NCBI GenBank assembly: GCA_963798915.1
Contig: CAWCVB010000007.1
Span: 32,001-96,000 of the forward strand
From: an uncultured Gemmatimonadales bacterium
GTDB lineage: Bacteria > Gemmatimonadota > Gemmatimonadetes > Gemmatimonadales > GWC2-71-9
Length of the DNA: 64,000 nt
Direction: 5' to 3'
Shown: piece after piece, positions 46,711 through 63,771 of the stretch
Layout of the letters: each line of letters starts with the position of its first letter
Position numbering within the stretch: position 1 is the first letter of the stretch
Notes under the pieces: model-generated
Seen by the model: the letters and a program-made list of their open reading frames with translations, nothing else
Databases searched by the model: none
What the model was told of the DNA's origin: nothing
Position numbers and translations under genes: made by a program

Positions 46711-47619
46711 TCAGTTGTCTACGAGGGTAACCTGCAGCCCGCCGAGCGCTTTCCGCGCGATGGAGACGCGTCCCGCTTCTCCCGGCTCGAGAAGACCTCG
46801 ATCGGCGAGAAAGCGCCTAGCGTCCCCAACAGAGCGGACGCCGATCACAATCTCCCGCATGCCGGCCTTCTCCGCCTCGACCAGCCGAATGGCAGGGCCG
46901 TCGCCGAAACTGAACAGGCCGGCCGATTCCTGCGCCGGGCTGGCGATCAGGTTCCGCCACTGCTCGGCAGCTTTCGCCAGGTCGGTCACCCCAAGCACGA
47001 TCTCCTTCACCGCGATTACCCCGAGGGGCCCACCATGTCGTCGGACCAGATCATCATGCGCGACCTTGTGAACCTCGTGGATTCCTTTCCGATCGGGGTA
47101 ATCGCAAATGAAGACGACGCTTGCTGGGCCGAGGCCGGTGAGATCCGTATTGATCCATCCTATGACCTCAGCGCCGGTAGAATCCTTATAGTGGGTCACC
47201 TCTGACGTCGAATGGCTGATCCCCCGGCGATTGAGCTCCGCGACCGCAGCTTCAGTATCGCCAACGGGCTCGAATGCGAGGCTCTTCCACTCCGTTGGAA
47301 GAGTTTCGCCCTTGCCAACCGCCCAGGTCACCAGTTCCAGCACCGTATTCCCGACCGAGAGCCCCCCGCTGGCAAAGTTCCCATAGCTCTTGTAAGGCCA
47401 TGCCACCGCCAGACCCAGCGTGTCGCGGAAGAAATTGAAATGCGATTCCGCCTGGGGAGACGTCGCGAAGAAGTGGTCCACTCTCGCGAGGAGTGGCGTT
47501 CGGGCCGCGGAGGCATCTAAGGAAAGCTTGGCGTCATCCCTGCGCTGAGTTGCGTCCCGTCCGCAGGCCACAACAGCAAGGCTGAACAGCACAGCAGTGA
47601 CCTGCCTGGCCTTCGCCAT
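46711..47619 (-). CDS. VOC/glyoxalase-like lipoprotein
   Basis: Lipobox VVAC, RVDHFF, FASGGLSVGNTVLE. Confidence 0.75.
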   Translation of the reverse strand: MAKARQVTAVLFSLAVVACGRDATQRRDDAKLSLDASAARTPLLARVDHFFATSPQAESHFNFFRDTLGLAVAWPYKSYGNFASGGLSVGNTVLELVTWAVGKGETLPTEWKSLAFEPVGDTEAAVAELNRRGISHSTSEVTHYKDSTGAEVIGWINTDLTGLGPASVVFICDYPDRKGIHEVHKVAHDDLVRRHGGPLGVIAVKEIVLGVTDLAKAAEQWRNLIASPAQESAGLFSFGDGPAIRLVEAEKAGMREIVIGVRSVGDARRFLADRGLLEPGEAGRVSIARKALGGLQVTLVDN

Positions 47620-47924
47620 CGTTGCCTCCTTGCGCGACCGGCGAGGGTCGAGCTTGCGCGCATTGAACGACTCGGAGCGCTTTCTGGCGGTATGCATCTG
47701 CGATCGCGAGGGCCCGCTCAGCATACGCGAGGACGCCACTCCCGACGGGGACGCTCGGTGAGCGCGAGGCCGAGTCCGCGAAACTGGGTGCTCGGTTACG
47801 CGCGGATCGCGCTCGGAGCCGCATTCCTGTCCGGCATCGCCGACCGCTTCGGTCTGCGCGTCTATCCGCTGAGCCACTGCCGCCACTGTGAAGCGTCCGC
47901 AACACACCGGAACGGGGGTGGGTA

Positions 47925-49007
47925 TCAGGGCGACCGGCCAGGCGCTCCCAGCACCCCCTCGGCGTCCACGATCTCCACCCCCTGCATCTGCCCCAGCAGG
48001 CTGCCGAACCAGGGCTTGTGCGAGGATCCCACGATGCAGAGCACGCGCGCTCCCGGCAACTTCCGGAATGCGGCCCGGACGTTGGCGACCATTCGGAGGT
48101 TACGGGTCTCCCATCCCCCAACATAGATTCGGCCGTAGCGCTGTGGAGACGGCTCGCCCAAGGCGGCTCCGAAGTCGGCGGCCACGACGACACGCAGGTA
48201 CGCGGGGCTGTTTATATACCGGTAGAGGGCCAGCATGTCGCCCGTCTTCACCAGCTCGTCCTCGTGCTCGACTGCCGACGCCGCCGACGGGTCGGCGGCA
48301 TTCCACGCCTGCTGGATCGCCCGCCCGAAAGCGGCCGCGTCAGGCACGTCGAGATGGTCACCGGTGTGGTCATCGACGGAAAACACGCGCTCGAGCCCCA
48401 GCCGAGCGGCCAGCCGCGCACCCAGGAGGTAGTTCTCGTTCCGGCGCGAGGCGAGGCTGTCGAGCAGGGCCGCCAGGGTGCCATCGAGGCCGTCGCCGCC
48501 ATGACGCTCGGTCGGGGGCAGCCGGAGCCACTGCACCAGGGCGGAGGGCGAATCGCCGGCGCTCAGGAACAGAGACGCCAGGTGTCGGCGCAAGCCCGGG
48601 CCAGGGAGTGCCGGCCACGCCTCCAGGGTTGCGTCCACCCGGGCCAAGGCCTCGGGAACATCCAGGCCAGTGGATGCACTGGCCGCCATGGTGCTCCAGC
48701 AATACCGGTTCATGGTGCTGGCATAGGCGGCGTGGCGGAGCGCCATGAACGCGCATTGCTCGCCGGAAAGGCGCTCGATAGTGATGATGTCGGGTTTGAA
48801 CGCCGCCAGGCGGTCGAGCACGGGCTCCAGAGACTCGGGGAGCCCCGCATCCTGCACGGTGGACAGATGCGTTGTTCCAAGCACCAGGATCTGCGCCGGT
48901 GGCCCGGCCAGCTTCCGGTCCAAGTTGGAGAGATCGATCTGCGCCCGCGCCAGGCCGGGTGAGGCAAGTGTCAGGATCAGGGCCCAGATCGTGAGCCGCG
49001 TAGTCAT
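47925..49007 (-). CDS. Secreted DUF5694-like protein
   Basis: ILVLGTTHL, WETRNLRMVAN, IVGSSHKPW. Confidence 0.78.
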   Translation of the reverse strand: MTTRLTIWALILTLASPGLARAQIDLSNLDRKLAGPPAQILVLGTTHLSTVQDAGLPESLEPVLDRLAAFKPDIITIERLSGEQCAFMALRHAAYASTMNRYCWSTMAASASTGLDVPEALARVDATLEAWPALPGPGLRRHLASLFLSAGDSPSALVQWLRLPPTERHGGDGLDGTLAALLDSLASRRNENYLLGARLAARLGLERVFSVDDHTGDHLDVPDAAAFGRAIQQAWNAADPSAASAVEHEDELVKTGDMLALYRYINSPAYLRVVVAADFGAALGEPSPQRYGRIYVGGWETRNLRMVANVRAAFRKLPGARVLCIVGSSHKPWFGSLLGQMQGVEIVDAEGVLGAPGRSP

Positions 49008-49382
49008 GAATCCACTCCGGGCGACTATCCTGGGTGTCAGAGCCCGATTGTCACATTTGTTCGACGTTAGCCGAATGTCAACTCGCCGGCCATACCGGAG
49101 TCTTCGAGTTTCTCGATCGCTCGCGCGCTCAGATCTCACCACCCCGCAACGCTCGTCCCGTCCATGCGTCTGGCAGGCGGAGGTCACGCCTGCCTTCGAG
49201 CCGGATGCGGTGCCAGAGCGAGTCCGCAAGGCAGCGGCCAGATACATGAGTTCGCGGTCGTAGTCGCGGTCGCTCGGATCCCATCCCTTGTGTGCCGTGG
49301 TTGCGTAGCGCTGGAGAAAGTGGCCGAGCTCCTGCTGGAGCTTTTTCCCGCGATTGCTCATCGATCCTCGATCGCAAGGGCC

Positions 49383-49442
49383 GTCTAACGCCCAGCATCA
49401 GCGGCGCCGCGAAGCGCCGTCCGCTGCATGCTGTTGTTCGGC
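49383..49442 (-). other. attC site (60 bp)
   Basis: GCCGAAC..CAGCAT(G)CAGCGG(A)CG...CGCCGCTGATGCTG..GTTAGAC, two unpaired bases. Confidence 0.88.
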
Positions 49443-49483
49443 AGCACCGCGCTTGCATCTCAGCACGAACAGTTGCTTCCGGC

Positions 49484-49864
49484 TCAAGAGCCCGCGTCCT
49501 TGGCCTTAAAAGGAACGACCTCGACCGTCCCCTCCGGAAACTCGACAGTGAAGTTCAGAAGCTCGCCGTCGACCGCCTCGATATACTGCGCGAGCGTGCT
49601 CATCAGCAGGTCGCCACGTTTTTCGATCTGTGAGATTGCTGACTGCGTACGCCCAAGCCGGGCCGCCATCTCCTCCTGCGAAATCTGGCGCGCTTCGCGC
49701 AGCTCTCGTAAGCGCGGGCCGGTGATGAGGTCCTGTCGGCTTTCAGCGGATTGCTCGCGCCACCCTGGATCGACCTTATCTCGAAAATCGCCCAGCAGTT
49801 TCTTGCCCTGGCTGATCGCATCTTTTTCGATGGGCGTCAGTCTGTCCCACAATTTCTTGGCCAT
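49484..49864 (-). CDS. XRE-family HTH protein (orphan antitoxin-like)
   Basis: LRELREARQISQEEMAARLGRTQSAISQIEKRGD. Confidence 0.85.
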   Translation of the reverse strand: MAKKLWDRLTPIEKDAISQGKKLLGDFRDKVDPGWREQSAESRQDLITGPRLRELREARQISQEEMAARLGRTQSAISQIEKRGDLLMSTLAQYIEAVDGELLNFTVEFPEGTVEVVPFKAKDAGS

Positions 49865-49941
49865 GATTGCTCCTCGGTGTTTGTTCGGCTATCTCTCCGG
49901 AGGTTCGACATAATCGGCCACTCAGAGGCCGCCCAGAACAG

Positions 49942-49970
49942 AACATAAGGTCTGAGTGATATAATGTCAA
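49942..49970 (-). promoter_or_regulatory. Sigma70 promoter
   Basis: TTGACA-N17-TATGTT in an AT-rich patch upstream of the XRE gene. Confidence 0.7.
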
Positions 49971-50049
49971 GCTTATACAGAATGAATCGCCCAAGGGGCT
50001 TCTGGGCTCGTCGGCAGCAAGCGCCTGTTTGGCACTAACCGTCGCGCAG

Positions 50050-50370
50050 TCGAGCAGTAGCGTCGAGTCCGCGCCAACCGTGATGAGGCGTGTCGGGCGT
50101 TCGTATTCGGCGGGGCCGCGACCGGTGCGGCCGACTTGTTCCACCGCTCCAGACGGAAAATCAGCAACGTACAAAGCTCGCTCTCGCGGATCGATGACGA
50201 GCACCCGACCATCGGGAAGCGCTCGGACCGAGGACACGCGGGTGAACTCATGCGCGGCCGAGTCACGCGGAGGCTCTAGCGCGAGGAGCGGCGATTCGGC
50301 ACCCGCGAGCGAGCTGGCTGCGAGAAGCTCGGCAGTCGGAACAATCGGCGAGAGTACGCGCATCCTTTGA
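50050..50370 (-). pseudogene. 6-bladed beta-propeller fragment
   Basis: VRALPDGRVLVID, GRTGRGPAEY, ADSTLLLD; ends next to a half attC at 49998-50033. Confidence 0.6.
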
Positions 50371-50689
50371 TGACCACTGCGCAATCTCGATATTCATGAA
50401 CTTGGGGTCATGGAGAAGGTTTTTCGAGCCTTCAGCTCTTCTGGTTGGAGTGCGGAGTGGCCGGGCGCGCCCGCCCATTCATGGTAGACGCCGAGGTCGA
50501 TATCGAATGCGGCTCCTGTCGCCCAGGGTCGGATCTGCGTGTGACATTTGCGCCGCCGCGGCGCTGGGTTTGCGTTTCACTGGCCCGCCCAATACGTCGG
50601 GGTAACGGGCGGCTGTCGCCGCCATATCGGCGTGCACGCCGGTGAGCGGGCGTGAGGGGAACGCCGCCAGGATGTCGGCCGCAGCCGAA

Positions 50690-51235
50690 GGCAACCTGTT
50701 GCCGCGGCAGTGCGACACCCCGCCAGACAAACTCTTCCCCAACGATGTTCAGCACAAAAAAAGGGAGCCACGCGCTGAGAATTCAGTACCGGCCGGGACC
50801 GAGCGGCTCGAAAGCCATGAAGGAGGGACGAAAATTCTTCCCGTCTTGCAGCATCCGCAGCGCGACGCCGATGCCGCCGGTAAGTGCAACGACGGCCGCC
50901 AGCCCTCCAACAGCCCAGAGCCAGTCGGCGCCATTCATCGGGCGAAGCCACAGCCGCGCACCCAACGAACCTAGCCTTCCTGGACGCCGTTCTCGATACA
51001 ACAGCAGGGCAGCCGTGAGAAGCAGGGGGCCAAAAAGGACGATGCTTGCGGCCAAGAACCACATCACCACCGTCTCAGCCCCGGTGGCGGAGACGAACGC
51101 CGGGACGGCTACCCGCGTAGTCAGGAACAGCAGCAGAGCCCCGGCCCCGAACAGCGCAGCAGAGCCGCCCAGGCCCATCGGAGGAACCCGATCAGGCTCC
51201 GGCCCTTCGCGCCTTTCAAAACCATTGGCTGACAA
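50690..51235 (-). pseudogene. CAAX/Abi (CPBP) protease cassette gene, frameshifted and truncated
   Basis: TM helices, then NIVGEEFVWRG in another frame. Confidence 0.65.
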
Positions 51236-51256
51236 TGGCCATTCTCCCGCCCGTAC

Positions 51257-51327
51257 GCCGAACGCTTTGCGCTTGAGCCGTGAGGGCGTGCGGCCTACGC
51301 CCTCGTCGGCTCCAAGCGCGGTTAGGC
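51257..51327 (-). other. attC site (71 bp)
   Basis: GCCTAAC-CGCGCTT(G)GAGCCG..GAGGGCGT...ACGCCCTC.CGGCTCAAGCGC..GTTCGGC. Confidence 0.82.
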
Positions 51328-51349
51328 CGTCTATGCCTGTGCCGGCTGG

Positions 51350-52001
51350 GGCGTACCAGCCATAGTAGCGTGTGGTGACCTGGCCCTTGTCCGGGATGTG
51401 CACCAGCACCCGCGCGAGGAACGCTCTCGGATCGAGCGTCTCGGTGCCCGCCGTCGGCCCCTCGGCCTTGTCCAAGCGATACGTCACCGTCTTCGCCGCG
51501 CGGTCGTAGGTCAGCCGCTCCAGTGCAAGGGGATTCCGCGCACAGTAGCGGGCCAACCGGGTCGCGAACCCGGCGCGCGCCCACCGAGGCCAGCCGCCGG
51601 TGGACCTCGCTCCTGCGGCAGATCTTTGAGGTCGACCCGCTCCGCTGCCCCACCTGTCACGGGACCATGCGGATCGTGGCGGTCATCACCCAGCGGTCGG
51701 TGATCGATCAGATCTTGGCGCACCTCGGCACCCGCACCACTGCCGCGGCACGGAGCCCGCCGTCCACTCGGGCGCCGGCGCCTTGGGGCCCGCCGAGTCG
51801 ACGCACGGCCACGCCGGCGTCCTGACAGACCGTGACCTCGCAGGACCGAATGTCACCGCGGCCCCCGACCCGCCGCGAGGCCAAATGGACCAGCGAAGAC
51901 CCGAGCCAACACCCCAACGGCCCCACCCGCACCGCCGGCAGGCCGGTGACGCGGCGCCCGGAGCTGCGGTACCTTCGGGTGACCAGGATTGAAATTCCTA
52001 T
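51350..52001. mobile_element. IS91-like (Y2/HUH) transposase remnants in opposite orientations
   Basis: Minus 51350-51570: RLARYCARNP...HIPDKGQVTTRYYGWYA; plus 51572-51825: LLRQIFEVDPLRCPTC...IDQILAHL. Confidence 0.75.
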
Positions 52002-52015
52002 TCGGTCCGAATCGT

Positions 52016-53080
52016 TCACGGCCCTGCCGCCGAACGCTCCAGCGATGGGTCACCCATCTTCCAATCAAAGGGCGGTCCCTTGTTGATGCTGTAGACCATG
52101 AGCCCCACCTCAGACGAGATAACGTCCTGGTCCGTCATCAGCGCCAGTTGCTTCTCGGCCTTATCCACCTGCCCCTGGATCATGGCGCGCTGGGAGGCCG
52201 GCATCGCGGCAATTTGCTGTTTCAGCTTTTCCATATCGGTCCGGGCCTTTGCCATCTCCCGCTGCTGCTTCGGATCGAGTTGCGACCCGCCCATGAGACC
52301 AGTAATCCCCATCAACTGGCTGCGCGGCTCGTACATCGTCCCGACCTCGGCGTAGTTCCACTGATTCAGCTCGATCTTGATGGGCATCGACTGGTCCTTT
52401 TTCTTCATGCTGCCGAACACCCGGAGCTGGAGCTGGACAAATTTCTCGGTGTCAATCCATAGACTGATCTTGTCTACCACAAACTCTGCCTCCCCAACCT
52501 GCCGGGGCGAGAGGTCCGAGAGGCCCTCGGCGACCAGAAGGAACGCGGGCCGTCCCCCGAAGACCGTGTTCGTGCCCACCAGCCTGGCCCGCTGCGCGAA
52601 AGCGGCGACTCCCATTGCCTGGTCGGTCGCATCCTGCCGTCCATCGTTTTCCCGGTAGCTGGCCGCCTGCGCCAGGAACCCCGGAAAGGTGGCCATCGCC
52701 TCATCGATCTTGGCACTCGCCATCCCACTGCCTGGAACGCCGGCGATGGACTGCTTCATCGCGCCGCCGATCATGCCGACCAGCGGACCCATTTGCGCTG
52801 CCGCCGCCTGCAGGTCGATGTCATTGGCGGCGTTTCGGGAGTCCCGCTTGGCCCACTCTGAGATGGGAACCAACCGGTAGAGCGGGACGCCGCCGCTACC
52901 CGGGAAGCCCTCGTAGTAGAGCGGTGCCTCTGCTCCACCGTTCACCTTGATGATGATGGTGTAGTTGCGGACGGTGGCCATCCGGTCCATCTGCTTTGCG
53001 GCGGCGGTCGCAAGTATTTCCTGGGCGGTTTGCTGCGGTGCCGCCGCAACGATGGCGGCGAGAGCAATAGTGGCGAGCAT
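52016..53080 (-). CDS. Secreted hypothetical protein
   Basis: Signal peptide MLATIALAAIVAAA, RBS GGAGG; Met/Gln-rich helical segments. Confidence 0.82.
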   Translation of the reverse strand: MLATIALAAIVAAAPQQTAQEILATAAAKQMDRMATVRNYTIIIKVNGGAEAPLYYEGFPGSGGVPLYRLVPISEWAKRDSRNAANDIDLQAAAAQMGPLVGMIGGAMKQSIAGVPGSGMASAKIDEAMATFPGFLAQAASYRENDGRQDATDQAMGVAAFAQRARLVGTNTVFGGRPAFLLVAEGLSDLSPRQVGEAEFVVDKISLWIDTEKFVQLQLRVFGSMKKKDQSMPIKIELNQWNYAEVGTMYEPRSQLMGITGLMGGSQLDPKQQREMAKARTDMEKLKQQIAAMPASQRAMIQGQVDKAEKQLALMTDQDVISSEVGLMVYSINKGPPFDWKMGDPSLERSAAGP

Positions 53081-53130
53081 GGAGCCTTCCTCCGACGGGG
53101 CAGGGTGATGACGCAACTCGGATCTGGCCT

Positions 53131-53161
53131 CCTGAACGCATTCGAGACCCGAAGCCCGCCA
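53131..53161 (-). promoter_or_regulatory. ECF promoter motif copy 1
   Basis: TGGCGGG-CTTCGGGTCTCGAATG-CGTTCAGG. Confidence 0.8.
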
Positions 53162-53180
53162 CGGCGCCCGGCATCGGAGA

Positions 53181-53211
53181 TGGCGGGATTGGGGCCGGTC
53201 ATGCGTTCAGG
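53181..53211 (+). promoter_or_regulatory. ECF promoter motif copy 2
   Basis: TGGCGGG-ATTGGGGCCGGTCATG-CGTTCAGG. Confidence 0.8.
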
Positions 53212-53238
53212 GAGGCATCCCCTCACCACGGAGTCGAC

Positions 53239-53865
53239 ATGCCCTCCAGGTACACACGCAAGGTGCTCCTCGCAGCCTCGCTCCTGATGGCCCTACCGGC
53301 AGTGGTCGGCGCCCAATCAGGGCCCGCCGCCCTCCAGGTCTGGCTGGACGGCCGCACCGCCCGGATGGCGCCGAAAGGAGTCACTGCCTCGATTGGACAG
53401 GTACTCAATCAGAAGACAGTGATCAAGGCGAAGCTGGACGGGACGCTCAGCGCCGTGCTGTTCATGGCGCTGGTGAAGAATGGAAAGGTCGTCTGGCAAT
53501 CGGAGTCGAAGCCGTTCAATATCCCGGCGTCATCCGCAGGGTCCTCAGGGGGTGCGTTACTTGGACATTTACTGCCCGGAGATCAGTTCCTGCCCGGTGA
53601 TCAATTCCTGCCAGGGGATCAGTTCCTCCCAGGGGATCAGTTCAGCGCGATCCAGGATCACTCGGGCTCCTACTACTCTTCAGCCGCCAAGCAGGTCCCC
53701 GCATCCTCCTTCGCCACGGACGCCGGCAAGATGATCATCGACGGGGTCTTTCCTGACGTGCCACCCTCGATCAAGAGCGGGCGCGTGCTGCTGGTGGCCG
53801 TCGTCCCTGCCTCGACGCACGAGCGGAATGGCGCCTACGCTCTTCCGATGTTCATCGGGCTGTAG
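53239..53865 (+). CDS. Secreted protein with internal (LPGDQF)x4 repeat
   Basis: Signal peptide ending VVGA-Q, RBS GGAG, 208 aa. Confidence 0.82.
   Translation: MPSRYTRKVLLAASLLMALPAVVGAQSGPAALQVWLDGRTARMAPKGVTASIGQVLNQKTVIKAKLDGTLSAVLFMALVKNGKVVWQSESKPFNIPASSAGSSGGALLGHLLPGDQFLPGDQFLPGDQFLPGDQFSAIQDHSGSYYSSAAKQVPASSFATDAGKMIIDGVFPDVPPSIKSGRVLLVAVVPASTHERNGAYALPMFIGL
53572..53643 (+). repeat. 18-bp coding tandem repeat x4
   Basis: CTGCCCGGAGATCAGTTC, CTGCCCGGTGATCAATTC, CTGCCAGGGGATCAGTTC, CTCCCAGGGGATCAGTTC. Confidence 0.95.
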
Positions 53866-53920
53866 TCACCCGGAGGGGACGGCTCCACGCGGCCGGAGCC
53901 GTCCCAGACCCAGGCCTCGC

Positions 53921-55237
53921 TCAGGAATCGAGCCGCACCAGGTCCACCCGTCGGTTCTGCGCCTTCCCCTCCGGCGTGTCGTTGCTGGCCACCGGCTTGG
54001 ACTCGCCGAACCCCATCGCCTCCAGGCGTGCCGCGTCGATGTTCATTTCGGTCACGAGATACTCCATCACCGCCTTGGCGCGGCGCTCCGAGAGGTCCTG
54101 GTTGAATTCCGTGGTGCCGTCGCTGTCGGTGTGTCCCTCGATGGCGATGCGCAGATCGGGATTTCCCTGCAGCATCATGCCGATCTCCAGGAGCGTCGGC
54201 GTCGACTCGGGACGGATGCGCGCGCTGTTGGTGGCGAAGAGCACCCCCTGGGTGCTCACCCTGCCCTCCTCGACCAGCCGGTCGTAGAGGTCGCGGCCCC
54301 CGCCGGCCACCCGCACCGGCCCGATCAGGATCGGATGCTCGGCGCCCGCCGACCCGACGGCCATGAAGAGGGTGTCGCTCCGGGGAAAGACGGCATTCGG
54401 TACGTTGGCCACGCGCCGTTCGCCGAGGTAGACCTTCATGTGCTCGCCGTCGGCCATGACCCGTACCGAGGCGATCACGTCCCTCGTCGCGGCGGCCTCC
54501 ACGGTCGTCAGCACCTCTGGCCCAGCCCCGCCGACCGGCATGAGTCCTGCGCGGGTCATGGCCACGGCCACCACGGAACCCTGGTAGGTACGGGCCGGTC
54601 CCTGGAACGCCCGGCCTGGCATGAGGCGCACATAGGCGTTGCCATGGGTGAGATTGACGCTGTACTCCACCGTGAACTGGTCCGGGAGTGTTGCCGGCAG
54701 CGGGATGGCGAAGATCCCCCCGGACGTGGCGCGGACGTAGCGCATTCCCTCGACGTCCACGATTTCGAAGCTCCCCTGGCTCAGCACGAACCGCCGCGGG
54801 AAGTCTCCCACCACGTCGCGGGTGTAGTCGTCGTAGAAGAGGATCTTGTCGCCGGGCTGGAAGTCGTAATTGGCCCAGGCGCCCTCGCCCGGCCGTGAGA
54901 CGCCGCCGGAGGTCTCGGCGATGCGCGCGCCCTCTTCCGGATCGGAAACCGGTTTCCCCTTCTTGTCGAGCAACACCTCTCCCTCATCATCGGTCAGGAC
55001 GACGTCCTTCCCGGACTTCTCGGCGTCGTTGATGCACCGGAGGTTGTCGAAGGCGCACTGCACCGAGCCCCGGACAATCTTGTCCACCTGGCTGTTGGTT
55101 TCCGATTCCGCCGCCTCCTTGACCGTCTTCTTGAGATTCTTGAAGAACTGGGCATCGGCCCGGTCGGGGGAGAGCAGGAGGGCGAGGAGGATCAAGGCGA
55201 CCCCCACAGCGAGGGGCGGGCGCCGGATGGAAGGCAT
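53921..55237 (-). CDS. Exported OmpA/MotB C-terminal domain protein
   Basis: Signal peptide; IEGHTDSDG, NQDLSERRA, GFGES, NRRV. Confidence 0.9.
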   Translation of the reverse strand: MPSIRRPPLAVGVALILLALLLSPDRADAQFFKNLKKTVKEAAESETNSQVDKIVRGSVQCAFDNLRCINDAEKSGKDVVLTDDEGEVLLDKKGKPVSDPEEGARIAETSGGVSRPGEGAWANYDFQPGDKILFYDDYTRDVVGDFPRRFVLSQGSFEIVDVEGMRYVRATSGGIFAIPLPATLPDQFTVEYSVNLTHGNAYVRLMPGRAFQGPARTYQGSVVAVAMTRAGLMPVGGAGPEVLTTVEAAATRDVIASVRVMADGEHMKVYLGERRVANVPNAVFPRSDTLFMAVGSAGAEHPILIGPVRVAGGGRDLYDRLVEEGRVSTQGVLFATNSARIRPESTPTLLEIGMMLQGNPDLRIAIEGHTDSDGTTEFNQDLSERRAKAVMEYLVTEMNIDAARLEAMGFGESKPVASNDTPEGKAQNRRVDLVRLDS

Positions 55238-55282
55238 CGGATGTCTCCTTGCATGACGGTAACGCGAACGGCCCTTCCCCAT

Positions 55283-55313
55283 CCTGAACGGATTGGGAAG
55301 ACGATTCCCGCCA
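55283..55313 (-). promoter_or_regulatory. ECF promoter motif copy 3
   Basis: TGGCGGG-AATCGTCTTCCCAATC-CGTTCAGG. Confidence 0.8.
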
Positions 55314-55359
55314 CGGAGATTCCGGCCCCGGCTGGGGGGTGGGAAGGGGCTGCGAGGGC

Positions 55360-58014
55360 CTACGGGTTGGAGGGGCCGGCGCCGGTGAGGAGGGCGAGTG
55401 CGTCCCGGCACTCCGCCTGGTGTTCCGCCCGCACGCCCTCGTTGCGGGTCATCCGCTGGACCGCGGAATCGAGAAGCAGGCGCGCGGTCGACGTGTCACC
55501 CAGCAGCATCCGGGCCCGGCCGGTGCGGCAATCCGCCATGATGGCCGCCGGATGCCCCGTGGGTACCTTGCCCCGCAGTATGTCAGCGGCTTCGGACGCC
55601 AGGCGGTTCGCCACCACCCCGTCACCATGCTGGAGCTGGATTTCCGCCCGGGTGAGCATCGGGAAGGCAACGACGTACGACCCCTCCGGCATGATTCGCC
55701 GGTAGATCCGTTCCGCCTCTCGGGCCAGGGAGTCCCCTTCCGCATAGCGCCCCTGCCCCGCAACCGCGACGGCCAGGTTCTGGTATGCACCTGCAACCGC
55801 AGAGTGATTCGGCCCATACCTGGTGAGCTTGGTGGTGAGGAGTTCCCGGTAGATCGCCTCGGACTCGGCATGCAGTCCCGCATTAGTCATCAGGACGCCG
55901 AGATTGTTCCGAACTGCGATCGTGTAGGTGTGGTCGGCCCCCAAGCGGTCATCGAAGATGCCGACGGCCCGCTTCATCAGTTCGACCGCCTCGGCGATCT
56001 CGCCCCGCAGACCGAGGGACTGCCCCAGCGTGTGCGCCGCCATGGCGGTGCCCACGGTGTTGGGCCCCTCGGTCCGTTCGAAGATCGCCAGCGCCTCCCG
56101 GGCCGCCGCTTCCGCTTCCTCGAGGCGATTGGCCTCACGATAGTCGTCAGCGAGTCGTCGAAGGGCCTCGCCCATTTCCTTGCCGCCCGCACGCCGCAGC
56201 GTCGCGACTCCCTCCTCCGTCCACGCCACCGCGGCCATAGGATCAACCTTTCCCTCGAGCAATCCCAGCGCCAGCAACGCCCGGGCCTCCCGCTCCAAGT
56301 CAACCGGCCGCCGGGCACGCTCGATCTCGAGGCGCCGAATCAACAATCCACGGGAGGAGTCGAATTGGGTGGTGCCTCCCAGCAGGTAGGCCAGCTCCCC
56401 GAGGTCGTCGGCGAAGGCGGCGGACATGGTGTCGCCCACCTGGAGCCTCAACGCGACCGCGTCGCCGACGGCCGACGTGGCGGAATCAATCTGGTCGAGC
56501 CTCGTAAACACGGCTCCGATGGTCGACAGCAGTGCCGCCTGGAGTTGCGGTTCGCCGCGCAGTTCTTTCCGAACTTTGCCCGCTCCGATTTGCAGCGCCT
56601 CGACCACCGTGATGTTGCGCCCCCGTTCCGGGTCCGCCGGGGTAAGAGGGTCGGCGCTCTCGAACAGATCGACCAGGAACGACTGGGTCTCCAGCGCGAG
56701 TCGCGTTGCCGCCTGCGCGGCGTCCCGCTCGCGGGCCAGCCGGCGGTTCTGTCTGGCGAGCGCTCCAACGAAGACCGTCGTACCGACCAGCACGACGGCA
56801 AGCGCCGGCAAGAAGATCGGATGCCGACCAATGAACTTCCGCATTCGGTACGTCAGGGATTCAGGATGGGCCGCAATCGGCAGCCCCCGCAGGTGGCGCC
56901 GCACATCCGCGGCCAGCTCGTCCGCAGAGGCATAGCGCTCCTCCGGTTCCACCCGCAGCGCCTTGCCGATGATGACATCGAGGTCGCCGCGCAGCTGGCG
57001 GGAGAGCCGGACGGGGGTCGTGCTCCGGTTGGCCGCCCGGGACTCGGGCACCGGGGTCTTCGGTATCGGAGTACCGGCGATCCGACTGGGCCGCTGCGAC
57101 GAGTCGCCTGAGTCCGTGCCTCCGGCCGTGGGTCGCACACCGGTGAGCAGCTCACGCAGCAGGAGACCCAACTGGTACACATCGGTGGCCGTGGTGATCC
57201 GGCCCCCCTGTCGCTGTTCCGGGCTGGCGTACGTGGGGGTCAGCGGTCGCGCGCCGACCGCCGTCTCTTCGTCGTCCTCCTCAAGCAGCTTTGCAATGCC
57301 GAAATCGAGCAGCTTCACCCGGCCATCGGCGCCGACCAGCACATTCGAGGGCTTGATGTCGCGGTGCACCACGAGCTGGCGGTGCGCCGAATGCACGGCA
57401 TCGGCGACGTTCAGGAAGAGCTTCAGCCGGGCGAGGACGTCGAGCCGCTGGGCGTCGGCCCAGGCGGTGATCGGTTCGCCCTCCACCAGCTCCACGACCA
57501 GATAAGGGCGGCCGTCGGCCGCGGAGCCGCCGTCGAGAAGCCGCGCGATGTTTGGATGGGAGAGCAAGGAGAGAATCTGTCGCTCGACCAGGAAGCGACG
57601 GATGAGATCGTCGGTATCGAGCCCGCGGCGGAGGACCTTGAGGGCAACCCGCTGCTGGTAGGTGCCGTCCGACCGCTCGGCCTCATACACCGTGGCCATC
57701 CCGCCCCGGCCCAGGTGCCGGATGATCCGATAGCGATCGACCTCGGTCCCCGGCGCCAGCGCGCCGGCATCACCCCCGGCTTCGTCCATCGCGAACGCCC
57801 CAAGTACGACCGGGTCCGACGGCGACGTCACACGGCCGGTATCGGAGTCCAATCGGTCGAGGAGTCGCAAGACAAGGCCACGGAGTGCGTCGTCACCCTG
57901 CGCGGCATGGCGGACGAACGCGACACGCTCGGCAGCAGGGTGATCCAACGCCTCCGCCAGCAACCGGTCCACGTCGTCCCAGCGCTCCCAGAGCAGCGGG
58001 CTATCGGGCGTCAT
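55360..58014 (-). CDS. Membrane Ser/Thr kinase with C-terminal TPR array
   Basis: GRGGMATVY, VALK, HRDIKPSN, DFG, one TM, TPRs of the GADHTYT..NNLG type. Confidence 0.93.
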   Translation of the reverse strand: MTPDSPLLWERWDDVDRLLAEALDHPAAERVAFVRHAAQGDDALRGLVLRLLDRLDSDTGRVTSPSDPVVLGAFAMDEAGGDAGALAPGTEVDRYRIIRHLGRGGMATVYEAERSDGTYQQRVALKVLRRGLDTDDLIRRFLVERQILSLLSHPNIARLLDGGSAADGRPYLVVELVEGEPITAWADAQRLDVLARLKLFLNVADAVHSAHRQLVVHRDIKPSNVLVGADGRVKLLDFGIAKLLEEDDEETAVGARPLTPTYASPEQRQGGRITTATDVYQLGLLLRELLTGVRPTAGGTDSGDSSQRPSRIAGTPIPKTPVPESRAANRSTTPVRLSRQLRGDLDVIIGKALRVEPEERYASADELAADVRRHLRGLPIAAHPESLTYRMRKFIGRHPIFLPALAVVLVGTTVFVGALARQNRRLARERDAAQAATRLALETQSFLVDLFESADPLTPADPERGRNITVVEALQIGAGKVRKELRGEPQLQAALLSTIGAVFTRLDQIDSATSAVGDAVALRLQVGDTMSAAFADDLGELAYLLGGTTQFDSSRGLLIRRLEIERARRPVDLEREARALLALGLLEGKVDPMAAVAWTEEGVATLRRAGGKEMGEALRRLADDYREANRLEEAEAAAREALAIFERTEGPNTVGTAMAAHTLGQSLGLRGEIAEAVELMKRAVGIFDDRLGADHTYTIAVRNNLGVLMTNAGLHAESEAIYRELLTTKLTRYGPNHSAVAGAYQNLAVAVAGQGRYAEGDSLAREAERIYRRIMPEGSYVVAFPMLTRAEIQLQHGDGVVANRLASEAADILRGKVPTGHPAAIMADCRTGRARMLLGDTSTARLLLDSAVQRMTRNEGVRAEHQAECRDALALLTGAGPSNP

Positions 58015-58573
58015 CTCCTGCCAGCGCCTCGAGCAGGTAGGCCTTGGCACGCGTCCATTCCCGCTCCACGGTCCGGGTTGAGGTGTCCAGCACGGCCGCC
58101 ACTTCGTCCACGGTCAGCCCCCCGAAGAACCGGAGCTCCACCACGCGCGCCATCCGGGGATTGTGCTGCGCGAGCCGCTCCAGCGCCTCGTCCACGCCAA
58201 GCACGTCCTCGGATCCCTGGTCCGCGTCGATCGTGCCTTCGTCGAGCTCCGGGCGCACCGTCCCGCCGCCGCGCCGCTGGGCCTGGGTGCGCCGAGCGTG
58301 ATCCACGAGGATATGGCGCATCGCCTTCGAGGCGAAGGCGTAGAAGTGCGCGCGACTCTGCCATTCCCCGCCCTCGCTGCCAGCCAGCCGGAGAAACACC
58401 TCGTGCACCAGCGCCGTCGTGGCGAGATCCCCATCTCCACCCGCCATCAGGCGGCGGTGCGCGATGGCCCGCAAGTCGTCGTACGCGAGCGCGATCAGTT
58501 TCGGGAACGCCTCCGCGTCCCCTTCGCTCCACTGGCCCAGGAGATTCGTGATCGTCTGCGGGTTGGTCGCCAT
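58001..58573 (-). CDS. Kinase-associated ECF sigma factor (ECF43/TIGR02999-like)
   Basis: YDDLRAIA, DLATTALVHEVFLRL, VVELRFFGGL; overlaps the kinase start. Confidence 0.93.
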   Translation of the reverse strand: MATNPQTITNLLGQWSEGDAEAFPKLIALAYDDLRAIAHRRLMAGGDGDLATTALVHEVFLRLAGSEGGEWQSRAHFYAFASKAMRHILVDHARRTQAQRRGGGTVRPELDEGTIDADQGSEDVLGVDEALERLAQHNPRMARVVELRFFGGLTVDEVAAVLDTSTRTVEREWTRAKAYLLEALAGDDAR

Positions 58574-58625
58574 CTCTGGAAGCTACGCCTCACCGGGACC
58601 TCGGCAAGACAGCGCCCCTCGGTGC

Positions 58626-58656
58626 CTTTAACGGCGTCCGGGCCGCAATCCCGCCA
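58626..58656 (-). promoter_or_regulatory. ECF promoter motif copy 4 (putative autoregulatory)
   Basis: TGGCGGG-ATTGCGGCCCGGACGC-CGTTAAAG, 52 bp upstream of the sigma ATG. Confidence 0.72.
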
Positions 58657-58675
58657 GAGCGGCACCTGGAAAGGC

Positions 58676-58707
58676 GAACGCCCCCGGCCGACTGGCCGGG
58701 GGCGTTC
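58676..58707 (-). terminator. GC-rich hairpin, probable terminator
   Basis: Perfect 14-bp stem GAACGCCCCCGGCC with 4-nt loop, between the DUF4382 stop and the ECF promoter. Confidence 0.7.
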
Positions 58708-58725
58708 CTTTGCACATGGGGTGAG

Positions 58726-59517
58726 TTACGGCACCAGCGTGAAATCCACTCCGGTGACGTTCTCGGAATTCGCCACGTCAACTGGGGTGACGAGTCCGTC
58801 CTGGTACCCGGTGGCGCGTGCCAAGACCGAGTAGGTGCCCGGCGCGAGGTAACGGAGCACGTACTCCCCCGTCAGGGTGTCCGCGGCGGCGGTAGCGACG
58901 GTGTCCAGGCCCTGGATCGCATACAGCCCGGCCCTGGCCTCGATCGGGAGTACGGTGCCCGCAATCGAGCCCGCCACGTCCATGACGGTCGCGTGAATGA
59001 CCGGCTTGAACGAGGCGGACATCGGTCCGCCCGGCGGTCCCTGGAAGACGAAGCTGCGGGAGACGTCGAAATCGACGAGCAGAACCGTCTCACCCGGGAC
59101 CACCTGCACATTCCCCAAATTCACCTTCAGGCCGGAGGTGGAGCCGCTTGGGACCTTCATCAGCTCGGAATTGCTCCCGCTGGTGAAGGTGAGCGGGTCC
59201 TTGAGCGTGACCCTGGCCGAGTCGACGACCACGCGAAGCTGGTTGTAGCTGCCGACCGGAATCTCGGCCGAGCCGAGGTAGGCCGTCACGCCACCCTGCA
59301 GGTTGAGCAGGTCGTAGGAGGCGGTATCGCTGCTGATGACGTAGGACCCGGCATCGCCGACCACCGAGACCCCCGAGACCCAGATCATGGCGCTTTCGAC
59401 CTCTTCGCCTGGCGCGTCGGCCAGTCGAAGGGTGAGCGTGCCCATATCGGCGGTCCGAGCCGCGACACGCCGGTCCAGCGCTTCCCTGTAGATGGTGATG
59501 TCGGGCAGTTCGGGCAT
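58726..59517 (-). pseudogene. DUF4382 + carboxypeptidase-regulatory-like protein fused to an Fpg/Nei N-terminus
   Basis: MPELPDITIYREAL (Fpg start) in frame with GTLTLRLADAP...LMKVPSGSTSGLK...VDFDVSRS; native signal missing. Confidence 0.68.
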
Positions 59518-59643
59518 GGCTGGCTTGCAAGATCGCGCTGCGAATGCCCCGAGCGCGAGGCGGGCGCTCGGGCTCACGATTGACGCGGCGGGGGCCCCGT
59601 CCGAGTTTCTTCATCCTCTGCACCCCGATGGAGATTCGCGCCG

Positions 59644-59860
59644 ATGATCGCCTGCGTGCTCGCCCTCGCCGCCCTGCTGCAAGCTCCCGCCGACTCCACC
59701 GCGCTCAGTGGGACGCGCAATCCGGCGTACGCCGCCGACGGAGCCCGCGCGGCGACTCGGTGGTGTTCTCGTCGAATCGCGGGGGGCGCTTCTCGCTCTG
59801 GATCGTCGGCGCGGGCGGCGGCGCGCCGCGGCAACTCACCGATACGACGGCGAGCGATAA
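59644..59860 (+). pseudogene. TolB/PD40-like fragment
   Basis: Signal-like start, then SPRGDSVVFSSNRGG..LW..GGAPRQLT in another frame. Confidence 0.5.
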
Positions 59861-59912
59861 GCCATGGAGTCATGGGATCTCCGAGTTGCGCGTCATATTG
59901 TTCGCCATTGCC

Positions 59913-59971
59913 ATCTAACGAGTTGTGCTTCAGCCGCGGGCGGCGATGGCGGCTGCAAGCGCTTGTTAGAC
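59913..59971 (-). other. attC site (59 bp)
   Basis: GTCTAAC-AAGCGCTT(G)CAGCCG...CGGCTGAAGC..GTTAGAT. Confidence 0.85.
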
Positions 59972-59994
59972 GGCATGGCGGCACCGTTGCCGCG

Positions 59995-60399
59995 CTAGCG
60001 TGGGTACCGAGCGAGCGGTGATCGGTCACCGACAAACCAGATGTGCCCGAATGGATCCACGAAACCACCCTGCCGATGCGGACCCCACGGCATGCTGTGC
60101 ACCCGGACCTGGTGACCGCCAACCTCTGCACCAGCAGCGACAGCTCTGGCCACAACCGTGTCGGGACCGTCGCAGAATAGCTCAACTCGCACGGATGGCA
60201 TACCGAGCCGCCCCGGCATGTCCCACCCGTTGTTTTCGGGCTCGCCCAGCAGGATGGGCGCGCCCCCGATCTCGAGCCCAATGACCGAGCCAAGATTCCA
60301 GAGCTCCGTGGCGCCCAACGCCCGTTGATACCAAGCGGAGGCGGCCGGCGCGTCCGGAACGGCAAGCATGACAGATATCTGACAGGTAGTCGCTGACAT
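59995..60399 (-). CDS. VOC/glyoxalase cassette gene
   Basis: WYQRALGA, PWG..RQGGFVDPFGHIW. Confidence 0.85.
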   Translation of the reverse strand: MSATTCQISVMLAVPDAPAASAWYQRALGATELWNLGSVIGLEIGGAPILLGEPENNGWDMPGRLGMPSVRVELFCDGPDTVVARAVAAGAEVGGHQVRVHSMPWGPHRQGGFVDPFGHIWFVGDRSPLARYPR

Positions 60400-60456
60400 T
60401 GGCTGCACCACGATCTGGTGGAAGGTAAAGCGCACTCAAGGCTAGCGCGCCATGCC

Positions 60457-60571
60457 GTCTAACGACCTGCGCTTCCGCTGCGGGGCCTGGCGAGGCCGCC
60501 GCCATCCCCACACTAGCTAAACGCGGCGGCCGAGCGGTTCAGGCCTCGTCGGCAGCAAGCGCGGGTTCGGC
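60457..60571 (-). other. attC site (115 bp)
   Basis: GCCGAAC-CCGCGCTTGCTGCCGAC...GCGGAAGCGCAGGTC-GTTAGAC. Confidence 0.85.
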
Positions 60572-60576
60572 GCCAC

Positions 60577-61185
60577 CTAGTGATCGTCCGGGAGGCTCAA
60601 CACATGGCCAGCCCGCGAGACCGGAACGAGGACCCCTGGACGGGCCGAAAAATTCACCAGAGCAGTACGAAGTGCGGCAGATTCACTGGTCAGGAAGATT
60701 TTGTCGTCATGTCCACCGGACCGAATGTACGGTGTCCGTAAACGCCCTGATTCCAAAGCCGCCTTCAGCGAATCCGTGTCAAACCCCAAAAAATCGAGTC
60801 CTCCTGCAGTCCGCCGCACGACGACTTGCATGTACCCTGGAAGAACCAAACCATTGTACCTGTCCCAATCGCTCGCGCTCGCCGGTGTCACCTCGAAGAC
60901 CCAGGTGCCGGGGCCAAATGGCCCCAACCGGCCCACCAATCGAATCGTGTCGCTGTTGTTGCTAACGGATCGGAGCAGGTACTCCGTAGCCACCGGACCG
61001 CTCGGACTGGTCTTCTGGGTGACCTGAATCAGCGTGGTGTCCCCGCCCTGGATCAGTTGCCAATCCCCGAGCAGGCGTGGCTCGGCGATTGCCGCGCCAT
61101 CAGCGACCATCGGATGGATGGACGCGACCGATGTGCATGCAGTCACCAGCCAGAGGATCGGAAGCATGGCCAACCGTGTGCTCAA
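60577..61185 (-). CDS. Cassette lipoprotein
   Basis: RBS GGAGG, TTG start, lipobox VTAC, EPRLLGDW. Confidence 0.75.
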   Translation of the reverse strand: MSTRLAMLPILWLVTACTSVASIHPMVADGAAIAEPRLLGDWQLIQGGDTTLIQVTQKTSPSGPVATEYLLRSVSNNSDTIRLVGRLGPFGPGTWVFEVTPASASDWDRYNGLVLPGYMQVVVRRTAGGLDFLGFDTDSLKAALESGRLRTPYIRSGGHDDKIFLTSESAALRTALVNFSARPGVLVPVSRAGHVLSLPDDH

Positions 61186-61226
61186 AGATCCCTCCAGTGT
61201 TTGTGTTGCCCGTAGGTTCGAATGGC

Positions 61227-61286
61227 GCCTAACGGCATGGCGATAAGCGGCGGGTGAAGCCCGTCCGCTTCATCGCCGGGTTCGCC
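61227..61286 (-). other. attC site (60 bp)
   Basis: GGCGAAC..GGCGAT(G)AAGCGG(A)CGGG / CCCGCCGCTTATCGCC..GTTAGGC. Confidence 0.9.
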
Positions 61287-61290
61287 GGCA

Positions 61291-62343
61291 TCATCGCATA
61301 ATGGTCTCGCGCAGCCACCCCAGAAGCTGGTTCAAGTAAAGCTCGGATATCGGACCGCCCGAATCCGTCGTCCCAGTCTCCATAAGATGGTCGGCCTGCG
61401 GGATCCGCTGAATCGTCACTGCCGGGTTGGAGCGCGTCGCTTGTCGGATATTCGCGATGCTTTCCTCGACCGGAACCCATGGGTCCGCTTGGGCAAAGAA
61501 GAAGGCGATCGGAACCCGAACCCGAGCGAGTGCGGCCAGCGGATCATAGTCCATCTCCGCGTACCACTTCGTGAGCCTGGGCTCAGCGGGCAGGTCGCCC
61601 CTACCGGGGAGAAAGACCTGGCTGAACCATGGCTCGTGCCGGATGGTCGCGATGGCCTTCTCAGCATCCGTCCTCGTAGCCCGCCCTCGGTAGTAATCGT
61701 TCACCACAGCTCGAATCCGCAGCGCTCGGTCAATGATCTCCGGCGGGTGGCCGGCGGCTCGAAGCGCGGTCGCTGCGGCATAATCCATCTGGCCCGCCGG
61801 GCTCACGCCGGGACCGGACACTGAGACGACGAAAGCGATATCGCGTGACATGGTCGCGGCGAGCGGGCCCAGCCAGCCGCCTTGACTCACTCCCCAGACA
61901 CCTATCCGCTCAGGGTCGATGTCGCGTCGCGATTTCAGCAGTTCAACTCCGGCGATTCCATCCGCTGCGAGGTCCTGGAAGGTCGCTGTGTTGAAATCGC
62001 CGGTGGACGAACCTGAGCCCCGGCGGTCGAAGATTAAGACGGCGATGCCCGCGGCAGGGAGCGCGGTGGCAAGATGCTGATACGCATGGAAACTGCGCGT
62101 CCCGCCGCCCGCAGCATGGAATACGACCACAGCTGGGTACCGCCCGACCCCAGAGGGAATGTACAGGGTGCCCGACAGGTCGATGCTGCCATTGTGAAAG
62201 GAAACCTGTTCTGCCGACTCTGCCGAGCGCCCGGCACCGGCTGGATCAGGGGCCGTTCCAAGAGTCACGAGGGCGCCCAGGATGATGCCTAGCCACATAA
62301 CGGGGTCACGACCCAGAGAGTGAGTGGTGGCGGGCTTGACCAT
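61291..62343 (-). CDS. Secreted alpha/beta hydrolase cassette gene
   Basis: DRRGSGSS, GVSQGG, DPWVP, ADH. Confidence 0.87.
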   Translation of the reverse strand: MVKPATTHSLGRDPVMWLGIILGALVTLGTAPDPAGAGRSAESAEQVSFHNGSIDLSGTLYIPSGVGRYPAVVVFHAAGGGTRSFHAYQHLATALPAAGIAVLIFDRRGSGSSTGDFNTATFQDLAADGIAGVELLKSRRDIDPERIGVWGVSQGGWLGPLAATMSRDIAFVVSVSGPGVSPAGQMDYAAATALRAAGHPPEIIDRALRIRAVVNDYYRGRATRTDAEKAIATIRHEPWFSQVFLPGRGDLPAEPRLTKWYAEMDYDPLAALARVRVPIAFFFAQADPWVPVEESIANIRQATRSNPAVTIQRIPQADHLMETGTTDSGGPISELYLNQLLGWLRETIMR

Positions 62344-62374
62344 TGGTGTCTTCAGGCCTCCGTCGCGGCTTGCC

Positions 62375-62490
62375 GGCGAACGGCTTGCGCTTCTGCGGCG
62401 GGGCCAGGCCGGGGCCGCCGCCATCCCTAACCTACCTAACGCGGCGACCCCGGCGCTTCTGGCCCGGTCCGCAGCAAGCGCGTGTTAGAC
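62375..62490 (-). other. attC site (116 bp)
   Basis: GTCTAAC-ACGCGCTT(G)CTGCGG(A)C...CCGCAGAAGCGC..GTTCGCC; homologous to the 60457 site. Confidence 0.87.
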
Positions 62491-62913
62491 GGCGTCCGAC
62501 CCATCGTGCATACTTGCCGCCGCTGGTCCGCGATGCGTTCGCCAGTAGATGCCACCACCCACGGCACCGAGCACAACTCCCAACGGGCCCGTGATGAAGA
62601 TGCCAAGCATCGGACCTTGGTTTGCACCCGGCGCAAAGATCATTGGCCCAACAAAGCCGATCACAAACCCGATTACGCCGGTGACTAGCGCGCCTGCGAC
62701 GACAGATTCGACCAAGCCCCGCGAGGAGGAGGGTCCGACCCCTCGCTTCCATATGTATCGTGCCGCAGGGAGAGCGCAGGCCAAGGCCACCGCGATGCGC
62801 ACAATAGGGGCTCGGCCGACCGGAACAGGGAATAACACCGAGAGCCAAAAGACGAAGTAGAGAGTGGCCACCCCGGTGAACAGCGCGGCGCAAACGCGAA
62901 GGACTGACTTCAC
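62485..62913 (-). CDS. 4-TM membrane protein cassette gene
   Basis: GFVGPMIFAPGANQGPMLGIFITGPLG; stop TAA inside R''. Confidence 0.8.
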   Translation of the reverse strand: MKSVLRVCAALFTGVATLYFVFWLSVLFPVPVGRAPIVRIAVALACALPAARYIWKRGVGPSSSRGLVESVVAGALVTGVIGFVIGFVGPMIFAPGANQGPMLGIFITGPLGVVLGAVGGGIYWRTHRGPAAASMHDGSDAV

Positions 62914-63030
62914 GGTAGGTTCGACCTCCGACGGCGCACTCCAAGCGAATGCACTGAGAAGCGTTCAGGTGCGAACTCCACGAGTACAGCACACAAAGCG
63001 TTGGGTTCAGAGACCGAGGTCGTTGTGGCC

Positions 63031-63118
63031 GTCTAACGACAGGCGGTTCAGTTGCGGGGCGTGCGCCCGTCACCAATCAATGTTCCTTCCCGGCCTGACG
63101 GGCGCCAGCGGGTTAGCC
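63031..63118 (-). other. attC site with apparently deleted left arm
   Basis: GGCTAAC and GTTAGAC ends plus inner 10-bp IR GCGCCCGTCA; no partner for the CAACTGAACCGC arm. Confidence 0.7.
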
Positions 63119-63132
63119 AACACCGCGCGCGG

Positions 63133-63423
63133 CTACGCACTCAACGCGACGGCCACGGCTTCGGGGTCGACGGCGGCGACGCGGAGCAATGCTCGCGCGG
63201 GCCCGTCCGGCACCCGGCGCCCCTGCTCCCAGTTGCGCAGCGTGGCCACACTCACGCCGATCATCAGCGCAAACTCGGCCTGCGTCACGTCCAGGGCAGC
63301 CCGAATGGCGCGGATGTCGGCCGGCTTGAACGTCGTGACCCGGCGCGGACGACGCTGGCCCCGGCGAATCTGGCCGGCCTGCTTGACACTGGTCACGAGC
63401 CGCTTGAAGTCGGCTGGCTTCAT
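63133..63423 (-). CDS. higA: HigA-like XRE antitoxin
   Basis: TQAEFALMIGVSVATLRNWEQGRRVPDGPA; downstream of toxin, ATGA overlap. Confidence 0.87.
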   Translation of the reverse strand: MKPADFKRLVTSVKQAGQIRRGQRRPRRVTTFKPADIRAIRAALDVTQAEFALMIGVSVATLRNWEQGRRVPDGPARALLRVAAVDPEAVAVALSA

Positions 63424-63737: not shown

Positions 63738-63742
63738 GGTTC

Positions 63743-63771
63743 AAAGTACGCCAATGGCGTACCTCACGCAA
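63743..63771 (-). promoter_or_regulatory. TA cassette promoter with palindromic operator
   Basis: TTGCGT-N17-TACTTT; palindrome GTACGCCA-T-TGGCGTAC at 63746-63762; GTG follows after 5 nt. Confidence 0.8.

Follow-up and report, generated by a model that had tools for sequence, protein, structure and literature searches.

The DNA analysed here is a 64-kb window (64,000 nt) from an uncultured Gemmatimonadales bacterium, which carries a cluster of genes for an extracytoplasmic function (ECF) sigma factor of the ECF43 type, a receptor kinase and three exported proteins. The host genome, G000, is 3.3 Mb long, 84.8% complete and 66% GC, and for the survey of relatives we used 401 genomes of the phylum (labels with G stand for genomes, with L for loci and with C for contigs of G000). 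The 190-aa sigma factor (58001–58573, minus strand) matches TIGR02999 at 205.8 bits (cut-off 126.15) and PF07638 at 8e-52 (176 bits); its sigma2.2 motif is A51-T52-T53-A54, and the sequence ATTALVHE begins at residue 51. The sigma gene overlaps by 14 nt that of an 884-aa Hanks-type receptor kinase (55360–58014, minus strand; start supported by orthologues) with a kinase domain at residues 95–362, intact catalytic motifs, a single transmembrane (TM) helix at 400–418 and C-terminal tetratricopeptide repeats (TPRs), which would lie in the periplasm. No anti-sigma gene was found among the flanking genes, which encode a DUF4382 protein, the kinase and exported proteins. The original prediction had pointed to ATTALVHE, the overlap with a TM-TPR kinase and the lack of an anti-sigma factor, and profile and motif inspection of the locus confirmed each of them. 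The locus has the ECF43 traits that sequence can show: the profile match, a directly adjoining kinase gene (+1) whose product has a single TM helix and TPRs, S/T in place of the acidic sigma2.2 motif, and no co-encoded anti-sigma factor. As far as the available text of Casas-Pastor 2021 goes (PMC7826278), the ECF43 group has a Sigma70_ECF domain, a +1 kinase with one TM helix and TPRs and S/T in sigma2.2, and is described as proteobacterial only, whereas the present locus is from Gemmatimonadota.

The first of the exported proteins (53921–55237, minus strand; 438 aa) consists of a signal peptide, an N-terminal part of about 300 aa and a C-terminal OmpA_C peptidoglycan-binding domain (PF00691), which is found in 87/87 homologues. 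The N-terminal part has an invariant Cys pair and matches nothing in Pfam or, by sequence, in the PDB; neither a lipobox nor a barrel profile match was found in the protein. The second (53239–53865, plus strand; 208 aa) contains four PGDQF repeats; its predicted structure has a pLDDT of 46, with no Foldseek match at E<=0.001 and with Atlas matches under 0.9. At the sequence level it is linked to the OmpA-domain protein by gene fusions, the repeat domain being fused to the latter in G299 and G400; of the envelope complex of all three proteins that the original prediction thought possible, this pair alone is tied together by fusions. PGDQF repeats recur in exported proteins, either as separate domains or joined to OmpA or to large Ig-like proteins, and several of these lie beside ECF43/kinase pairs (L130, L154, L155, L156, L158; P0017-P0019).

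The third protein (52016–53080, minus strand; 354 aa) belongs to an unnamed family with 772 representatives at E<=1e-3. It had been regarded as structurally unknown, a view that no longer holds: comparison of its predicted model with the LolA fold gave a VIA Z of 12.9 and a root-mean-square deviation of 3.4 over 174 aligned residues, and LolA entries took the top 6 places in Foldseek (E 1.5e-4). The fold is shared with P. gingivalis LolA3 (9tp6), V. parahaemolyticus 3bk5, DUF1329 (4z48) and NE2245 (3buu) at Z 8.8–12.9, but identity to the LolA structures is 7–13%, and the protein has additional helical insertions, one of them a hairpin rich in Met and Gln. Unlike LolA, it is accessory and apparently sigma-regulated, with no lol genes alongside. 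LolA sequence profiles gave no match for the protein itself, and 4 of 68 homologues match PF17131 weakly (best E 4.5e-4). By its modelled fold it is a member of the LolA superfamily, and it probably carries hydrophobic cargo.

All three proteins start with a signal-peptide-like sequence without a lipobox (that of the LolA-fold protein was recognized by inspection and lies below the hydropathy threshold), which supports their earlier description as exported. After the signal peptide the mature proteins (genes starting at 53239, 55237 and 53080, with homologues A1, A3 and A5) mostly begin with Gln, and Gln at mature position 1 is nearly invariant in the 87 OmpA homologues, which suggests, from sequence, an N-terminal pyroglutamate. 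Complex prediction for the OmpA-domain and LolA-fold proteins gave a score of 0.00 with controls unfolded, and was used neither for nor against binding.

The four transcription units of the cluster are each preceded by a candidate ECF promoter, TGGCGGG-N16-CGTT. The copies lie before the LolA-fold gene (53135–53161, minus strand), the repeat-protein gene (53181–53207, plus strand; back-to-back with the former), the OmpA-domain gene (55287–55313, minus strand) and the sigma-kinase operon (58630–58656, minus strand), the last being the weakest and putatively autoregulatory. All are sense-oriented, with the start codon 31–56 nt downstream. Three continue as AT(G/C)CGTTCAGG, the sigma-gene copy as AAAG instead, and the divergent -35 boxes are 19 bp apart (53162–53180). 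The sites, their common spacing and orientation, the extension in three copies and the 19-bp gap had all been predicted and were found as described, save that the earlier coordinates include 4 bases past the motif.

Frequent occurrence of the motif at random positions, named beforehand as the observation that would speak against a regulon, was not seen: shuffled versions of the window contain 0.04 copies on average, with 0/100 reaching 4, and TGGCGG-N17-CGTT stands 12–110 nt upstream of exactly 4 of 2,474 crudely called genes, all at the locus. Exact N16 matches in G000 number 7, of which 4 are at the locus; since every other spacer length from 13 to 20 gives 2–6, the remaining three are background. 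A matrix made from 20 sites outside the window ranks the window sites 1 (LolA-fold gene), 2 (repeat protein), 3 (OmpA-domain gene) and 6 (sigma-kinase operon) in the genome, the core match being by construction. Ranks 4 and 5 (contig C15), which look like coding sequence by inspection, and rank 7, which adjoins another ECF43 paralogue, were rejected as extra regulon members. The DUF4382 gene was rejected as well; it has no motif, a hairpin intervenes and the gene is truncated in G159. It is extremely improbable that the four copies are functionless relics of local duplication or chance products of GC-rich DNA. The motif was noticed post hoc, and a genome of 66% GC yields about 4 chance matches per spacer length, but the spacers are unrelated, the four sites are promoter-positioned and the footprint persists in several genera whose loci are rearranged.

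This conservation was followed in the sigma clade, i.e., sigmas at at least 67% identity, which comprises nine loci (in G000, G159, G183, G245, G368 and G230, two in G400, and the metagenome locus L008) and has 100/99 support in a tree that holds 7 of its rows. The motif precedes exported genes at 9/9 of these loci, with differing gene orders and diverged spacers; the LolA-fold gene is present at 7/9 and the OmpA gene at 7/9. Among other ECF43-containing regions (n=28) the strict pattern occurs once, in L123. Spacers of the 20 outside sites are just 37% alike, and positions beyond the search pattern are conserved too, with A two bases after CGTT in 17/20. In another 40 OmpA-family loci, for which protein similarity was the sole basis of choice, blind to sigma and motif, a relaxed ECF43-type motif (background 128/2,474 genes) precedes the OmpA-family gene at 4/4 loci with an adjacent ECF43 and at 2/36 without (Fisher p 1.6e-4, with kin not independent).

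Although local in G000, the regulon has distal members in some relatives: the G245 orthologue of the repeat-protein gene retains its site at a distance of 210 kb from the sigma gene, and distal sites before exported genes were found also in G183 and G400. The description of the regulon as self-contained is therefore upheld for the 85%-complete G000 and fails for these three relatives. Autoregulation is supported in G000 by the motif before the sigma-kinase operon. Within the clade the ECF site stands directly before the sigma gene at 4/9 loci and before an upstream co-oriented gene at 3, where regulation would apparently run via the upstream operon promoter; it was not seen before the sigma gene in G368, and L008 begins too near the sigma gene to show one.

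Further exported proteins were observed at related loci. Several loci of the clade (L042 10321–10788, L044 10719–11180, L119 6691–7131) include among the co-regulated genes one for an exported protein of 146–155 aa that matches nothing in Pfam, and it stands ahead of the LolA-fold gene in G183 and G245. Proteins with BTRD1 repeats and a beta-lactamase fold lie under ECF43-type motifs in two sigma clades (L045 15204–17900, L132 3571–6912). In the 401 genomes, profile matches were obtained in 38 for the LolA-fold protein, 22 for the sigma (E<=1e-50), 8 for the repeat protein and 84 for the OmpA N-terminal part.

Sister ECF43 loci with the same outputs carry TGGCG-...-CGCT or TGTC-type variants with unchanged spacing. 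In all 31 loci with an assignable site (from 39 sigma rows, with 5 rows that were fragmentary or on long branches excluded beforehand) the fifth -35 base goes with a single residue of the recognition helix: G is paired with E/D/Q in 25 loci, C with R/K/N in 4 and A with A in 2. Residue and base each change 6 times on the tree, and the independent pairs on the starred branches agree in 4/4 cases (p 0.125). G000 encodes 8 ECF43-type sigmas, and none of the 7 paralogues has Glu at this helix position, which we take to be the equivalent of RpoE Arg171. In the available text of Todor 2020 (PMC7776599) the -31 base is determined by the residue equivalent to Arg171; C is preferred by Arg and Lys (0.88, 0.98), while for Asp and Glu there is a leaning towards G (0.44, 0.33). 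Because the footprint is conserved, limited to one sigma clade and covaries with the recognition-helix residue, the resident sigma very probably reads the TGGCGGG-N16-CGTT promoters, in support of the original prediction. It is very unlikely that the motif, while a real promoter, belongs to a different sigma of the genome, such as an ECF43 paralogue or an ECF of the TGTC type, or is bound by some other regulator: one of the paralogues has TGTCCGG-N16-CGTT sites that share the -10 box and spacing, and ECF37, ECF41 and ECF42 promoters are similar in geometry, but the motif tracks the sigma clade across genera, shifts with the helix residue of the neighbouring sigma, and the module transfers between genera as a unit. 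The paralogue in question, on C1, is flanked by two such sites (C1:230,161; exported gene at L-region 13,368), probably its own promoters, and single candidate sites were seen beside three other ECF43 paralogues.

Several points weigh against assigning the motif to the resident sigma. The residue-base table was built on hand-picked sites, 8 of the 39 sigma rows have no site, and the independent pairs number four, as given above. The fifth-base pairing is moreover a second, post hoc attempt; it replaced one in which the third -35 base was set against the helix residue (18/19 and 7/7; 2 independent pairs), as the fifth base fits L128 and L193 too. A pairing of the third -10 base with a sigma2.4 aromatic residue was mixed (21/26, 1 independent pair) and was dropped. 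The mutagenesis of Todor 2020, in the text available (PMC7776599), agrees with our table for R/K-C and weakly for D/E-G, but disagrees for Q, N and A. The 20 outside promoter-positioned sites were collected with the window's own pattern, and pattern scans against a reversed control showed a clear excess in three of five genomes (5 vs 0, 10 vs 3, 6 vs 1) but none in two (4 vs 3, 6 vs 6). Some orthologous loci (G230, G400, G245) have frameshifted sigma, kinase or ompA genes. The ECF43 promoter predicted in PMC7826278, as given in its available text, is GTC (-35)/CAG (-10) vs. TGGCGG/CGTT here. CAG follows CGTT in 3/4 window sites, and other ECF43 loci have TGTC at -35. The string GGCGG had no match in the supplement text available for PMC7826278, nor had any of six helix keys that typify the ECF43 sigmas studied here in that for PMC7776599.

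For the switch itself, T53 is the predicted phospho-acceptor, by homology to the STTA motif of EcfP and to T51 of EcfK (PMC8999054, PMC13147305). According to the available parts of these papers, EcfP/PknT of Vibrio parahaemolyticus likewise has xTTA without an acidic residue and is inactive until the second Thr is phosphorylated, but its output is polymyxin resistance (PMC8999054). EcfK/PknS of Xanthomonas citri shares with our locus an ECF43 beside a kinase-TM-TPR protein with an N-terminal extension, a sigma2.2 Thr and the lack of an anti-sigma factor (PMC13147305, available text). EcfK differs in keeping an acidic residue (QATE), in a second linker site and in inducing a type VI secretion system, whereas our sigma has ATTA and, as putative targets, three exported proteins encoded nearby; the available text of PMC13147305 gave no consensus for EcfK promoters. 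By this homology the kinase very probably activates the sigma factor, as had been predicted. Kinases are abundant in the host: contig C2 has, at about 204,000–315,000, a near-continuous tandem array of some 30 Hanks-type kinase genes on one strand; among 53 kinase-like genes called in G000, 36 are on this contig.

A second promoter, of the housekeeping type, probably serves the sigma gene. The sequence TTGCCG-N16-TAGCTT (58580–58607, minus strand) has a -10 box whose first base lies 12 nt upstream of the sigma ATG, and the arrangement is kept in G183. Over the whole genome, TANNNT has a peak at 12 nt upstream of first ATGs (35 of 1,402 open reading frames vs. 0–11 at distances 6–10 and 15–39), and the basal sigma-kinase transcript from this promoter may be leaderless. 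The enrichment of TANNNT at 11–14 nt before start codons in G000 indicates a class of leaderless mRNAs in the lineage. A generic sigma-70 and terminator scan returned 0 promoters, the housekeeping-type promoter being below its threshold, and 4 terminator-like sites (chance level), none at either of two hairpins described here. The terminator-like hairpin at 58676–58707 (minus strand) has a 14-bp stem and separates the sigma promoters from the DUF4382 gene; the 71-nt region containing it folds at -40.1 kcal/mol (z -4.95) with a short U tail, which bears out the hairpin noted earlier upstream of the sigma promoter. An 11-bp hairpin at 53876–53905, between the convergent repeat-protein and OmpA genes, is a possible shared terminator; the 76-nt region around it is not significant as a whole (z -1.3 and -1.7). 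Rfam gave no match across positions 44000–64000 of the window.

The module appears mobile, as window positions 51856–59189 (7.3 kb) are 98.5% identical to G159, a genome of another genus, while the gyrB region is 73% identical. Here gyrB served as the core-genome control, and window positions 10001–30000 were dropped as a poor one. Both copies (G000, G159) lie in assembled genomes on long contigs with different flanks, and recent transfer between genera is the simplest reading of the sequences. For G183 the module is about 80% and gyrB 78% identical. A plasmid search returned sigma homologues only, all below 46% identity. At the left end, outside the regulon, lies a rearranged remnant of an IS91-family (Y2_Tnp) transposase (50783–51825), common to the G159 copy; one part is inverted relative to the contiguous G159 copy, and two further copies occur at C7:103,945 and 106,847. 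Inverted repeats resembling attC were seen at window positions 59913–59971 and 62434–62490 and at the G159 loci L043 and L162, between small unrelated genes that include a probable toxin-antitoxin pair (63133–63737, by inspection), and an integron-integrase fragment lies at C7:119,614. A single integron cassette is not claimed for the module; attC-like sites are near both copies but do not bound it. Window positions 34641–36121 are also shared with G159 (79–92% identity), about 12 kb from its module copy.

Taken together, the locus is probably a mobile ECF43 module in which a kinase-activated sigma drives itself, its kinase and three envelope proteins. A weak housekeeping promoter would supply a leaderless sigma-kinase mRNA that primes the loop. 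By homology to EcfP and EcfK, the unphosphorylated sigma would bind core polymerase poorly until phosphorylation, as it has no acidic sigma2.2 residues. A periplasmic cue at the kinase TPRs may lead to autophosphorylation and then to phosphorylation of T53. The holoenzyme would then read TGGCGG(G/A)-N16-CGTT at the four promoters, where motif, placement and conservation are seen and binding is presumed. Sigma and kinase would be amplified, and a peptidoglycan-anchored OmpA_C protein, a LolA-fold carrier and a small repeat protein partnering the OmpA protein would be induced.

As to the purpose, envelope repair or remodelling is our first, tentative suggestion, held at somewhat short of even confidence. 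It is a guess, because genes co-regulated elsewhere include those for BTRD1/beta-lactamase-like, Ig-like, PKD and beta-helix proteins. The model of the 354-aa protein is middling (pLDDT 66), and its fold alone shows no function. The same promoter and switch could instead serve a surface-contact or defence programme directed at predators, prey or a competitor's wall, with the three proteins as a scaffold for variable exported effectors. We consider this possible but rather unlikely. EcfK/PknS respond to amoeba contact (PMC13147305, available text), the variable co-regulated genes encode BTRD1 with beta-lactamase-like, Big_2/beta-helix, PKD and He_PIG proteins, and the distribution is patchy (the LolA-fold gene is in 0/9 same-genus genomes) with evident recent transfer; however, no toxin, secretion-system or adhesin match was found in the three targets, OmpA_C and LolA folds are commonly seen in envelope components, and EcfP governs polymyxin resistance in the account available (PMC8999054). 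There is also a wider proposal: ECF43/kinase pairs of Gemmatimonadota would repeatedly control an undescribed accessory envelope kit, made up of the peptidoglycan-anchored OmpA_C protein, the LolA-fold carrier and the PGDQF-repeat domain, whose parts would jointly act as an inducible lipid/lipoprotein trafficking or repair route outside Lol, with paralogous pairs insulated by a one-residue/one-base code and each phospho-switch portable and orthogonal. We regard it as speculative and unlikely.

In the available text of Todor 2020 (PMC7776599), 47.8% of ECFs control at most three promoters, often nearby, and are more often horizontally transferred. Small local ECF regulons being described as common there, the architecture is less surprising than the original prediction implied. 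Our literature search found no ECF43 regulon in Gemmatimonadota and nothing on this output, although supplements of Iyer 2020 may hold ECF43 promoter or context data; promoter data were absent from PMC11406998. A kinase-switched ECF43 is thus of a known kind, while this particular promoter and the three-family output appear undescribed. The residue-base table is new as well; the known mechanism itself is unchanged by the locus. Few phosphorylation-activated ECF43 sigmas are characterised, and no tested promoter consensus was found in the literature as far as it was available. The locus offers candidate promoters at four exactly defined sites, together with a predicted phospho-site and a prediction for a one-residue/one-base swap, with a possible use in synthetic biology as an orthogonal kinase-to-promoter switch, and large unnamed envelope families of Gemmatimonadota gain from it a candidate regulator and a predicted fold.

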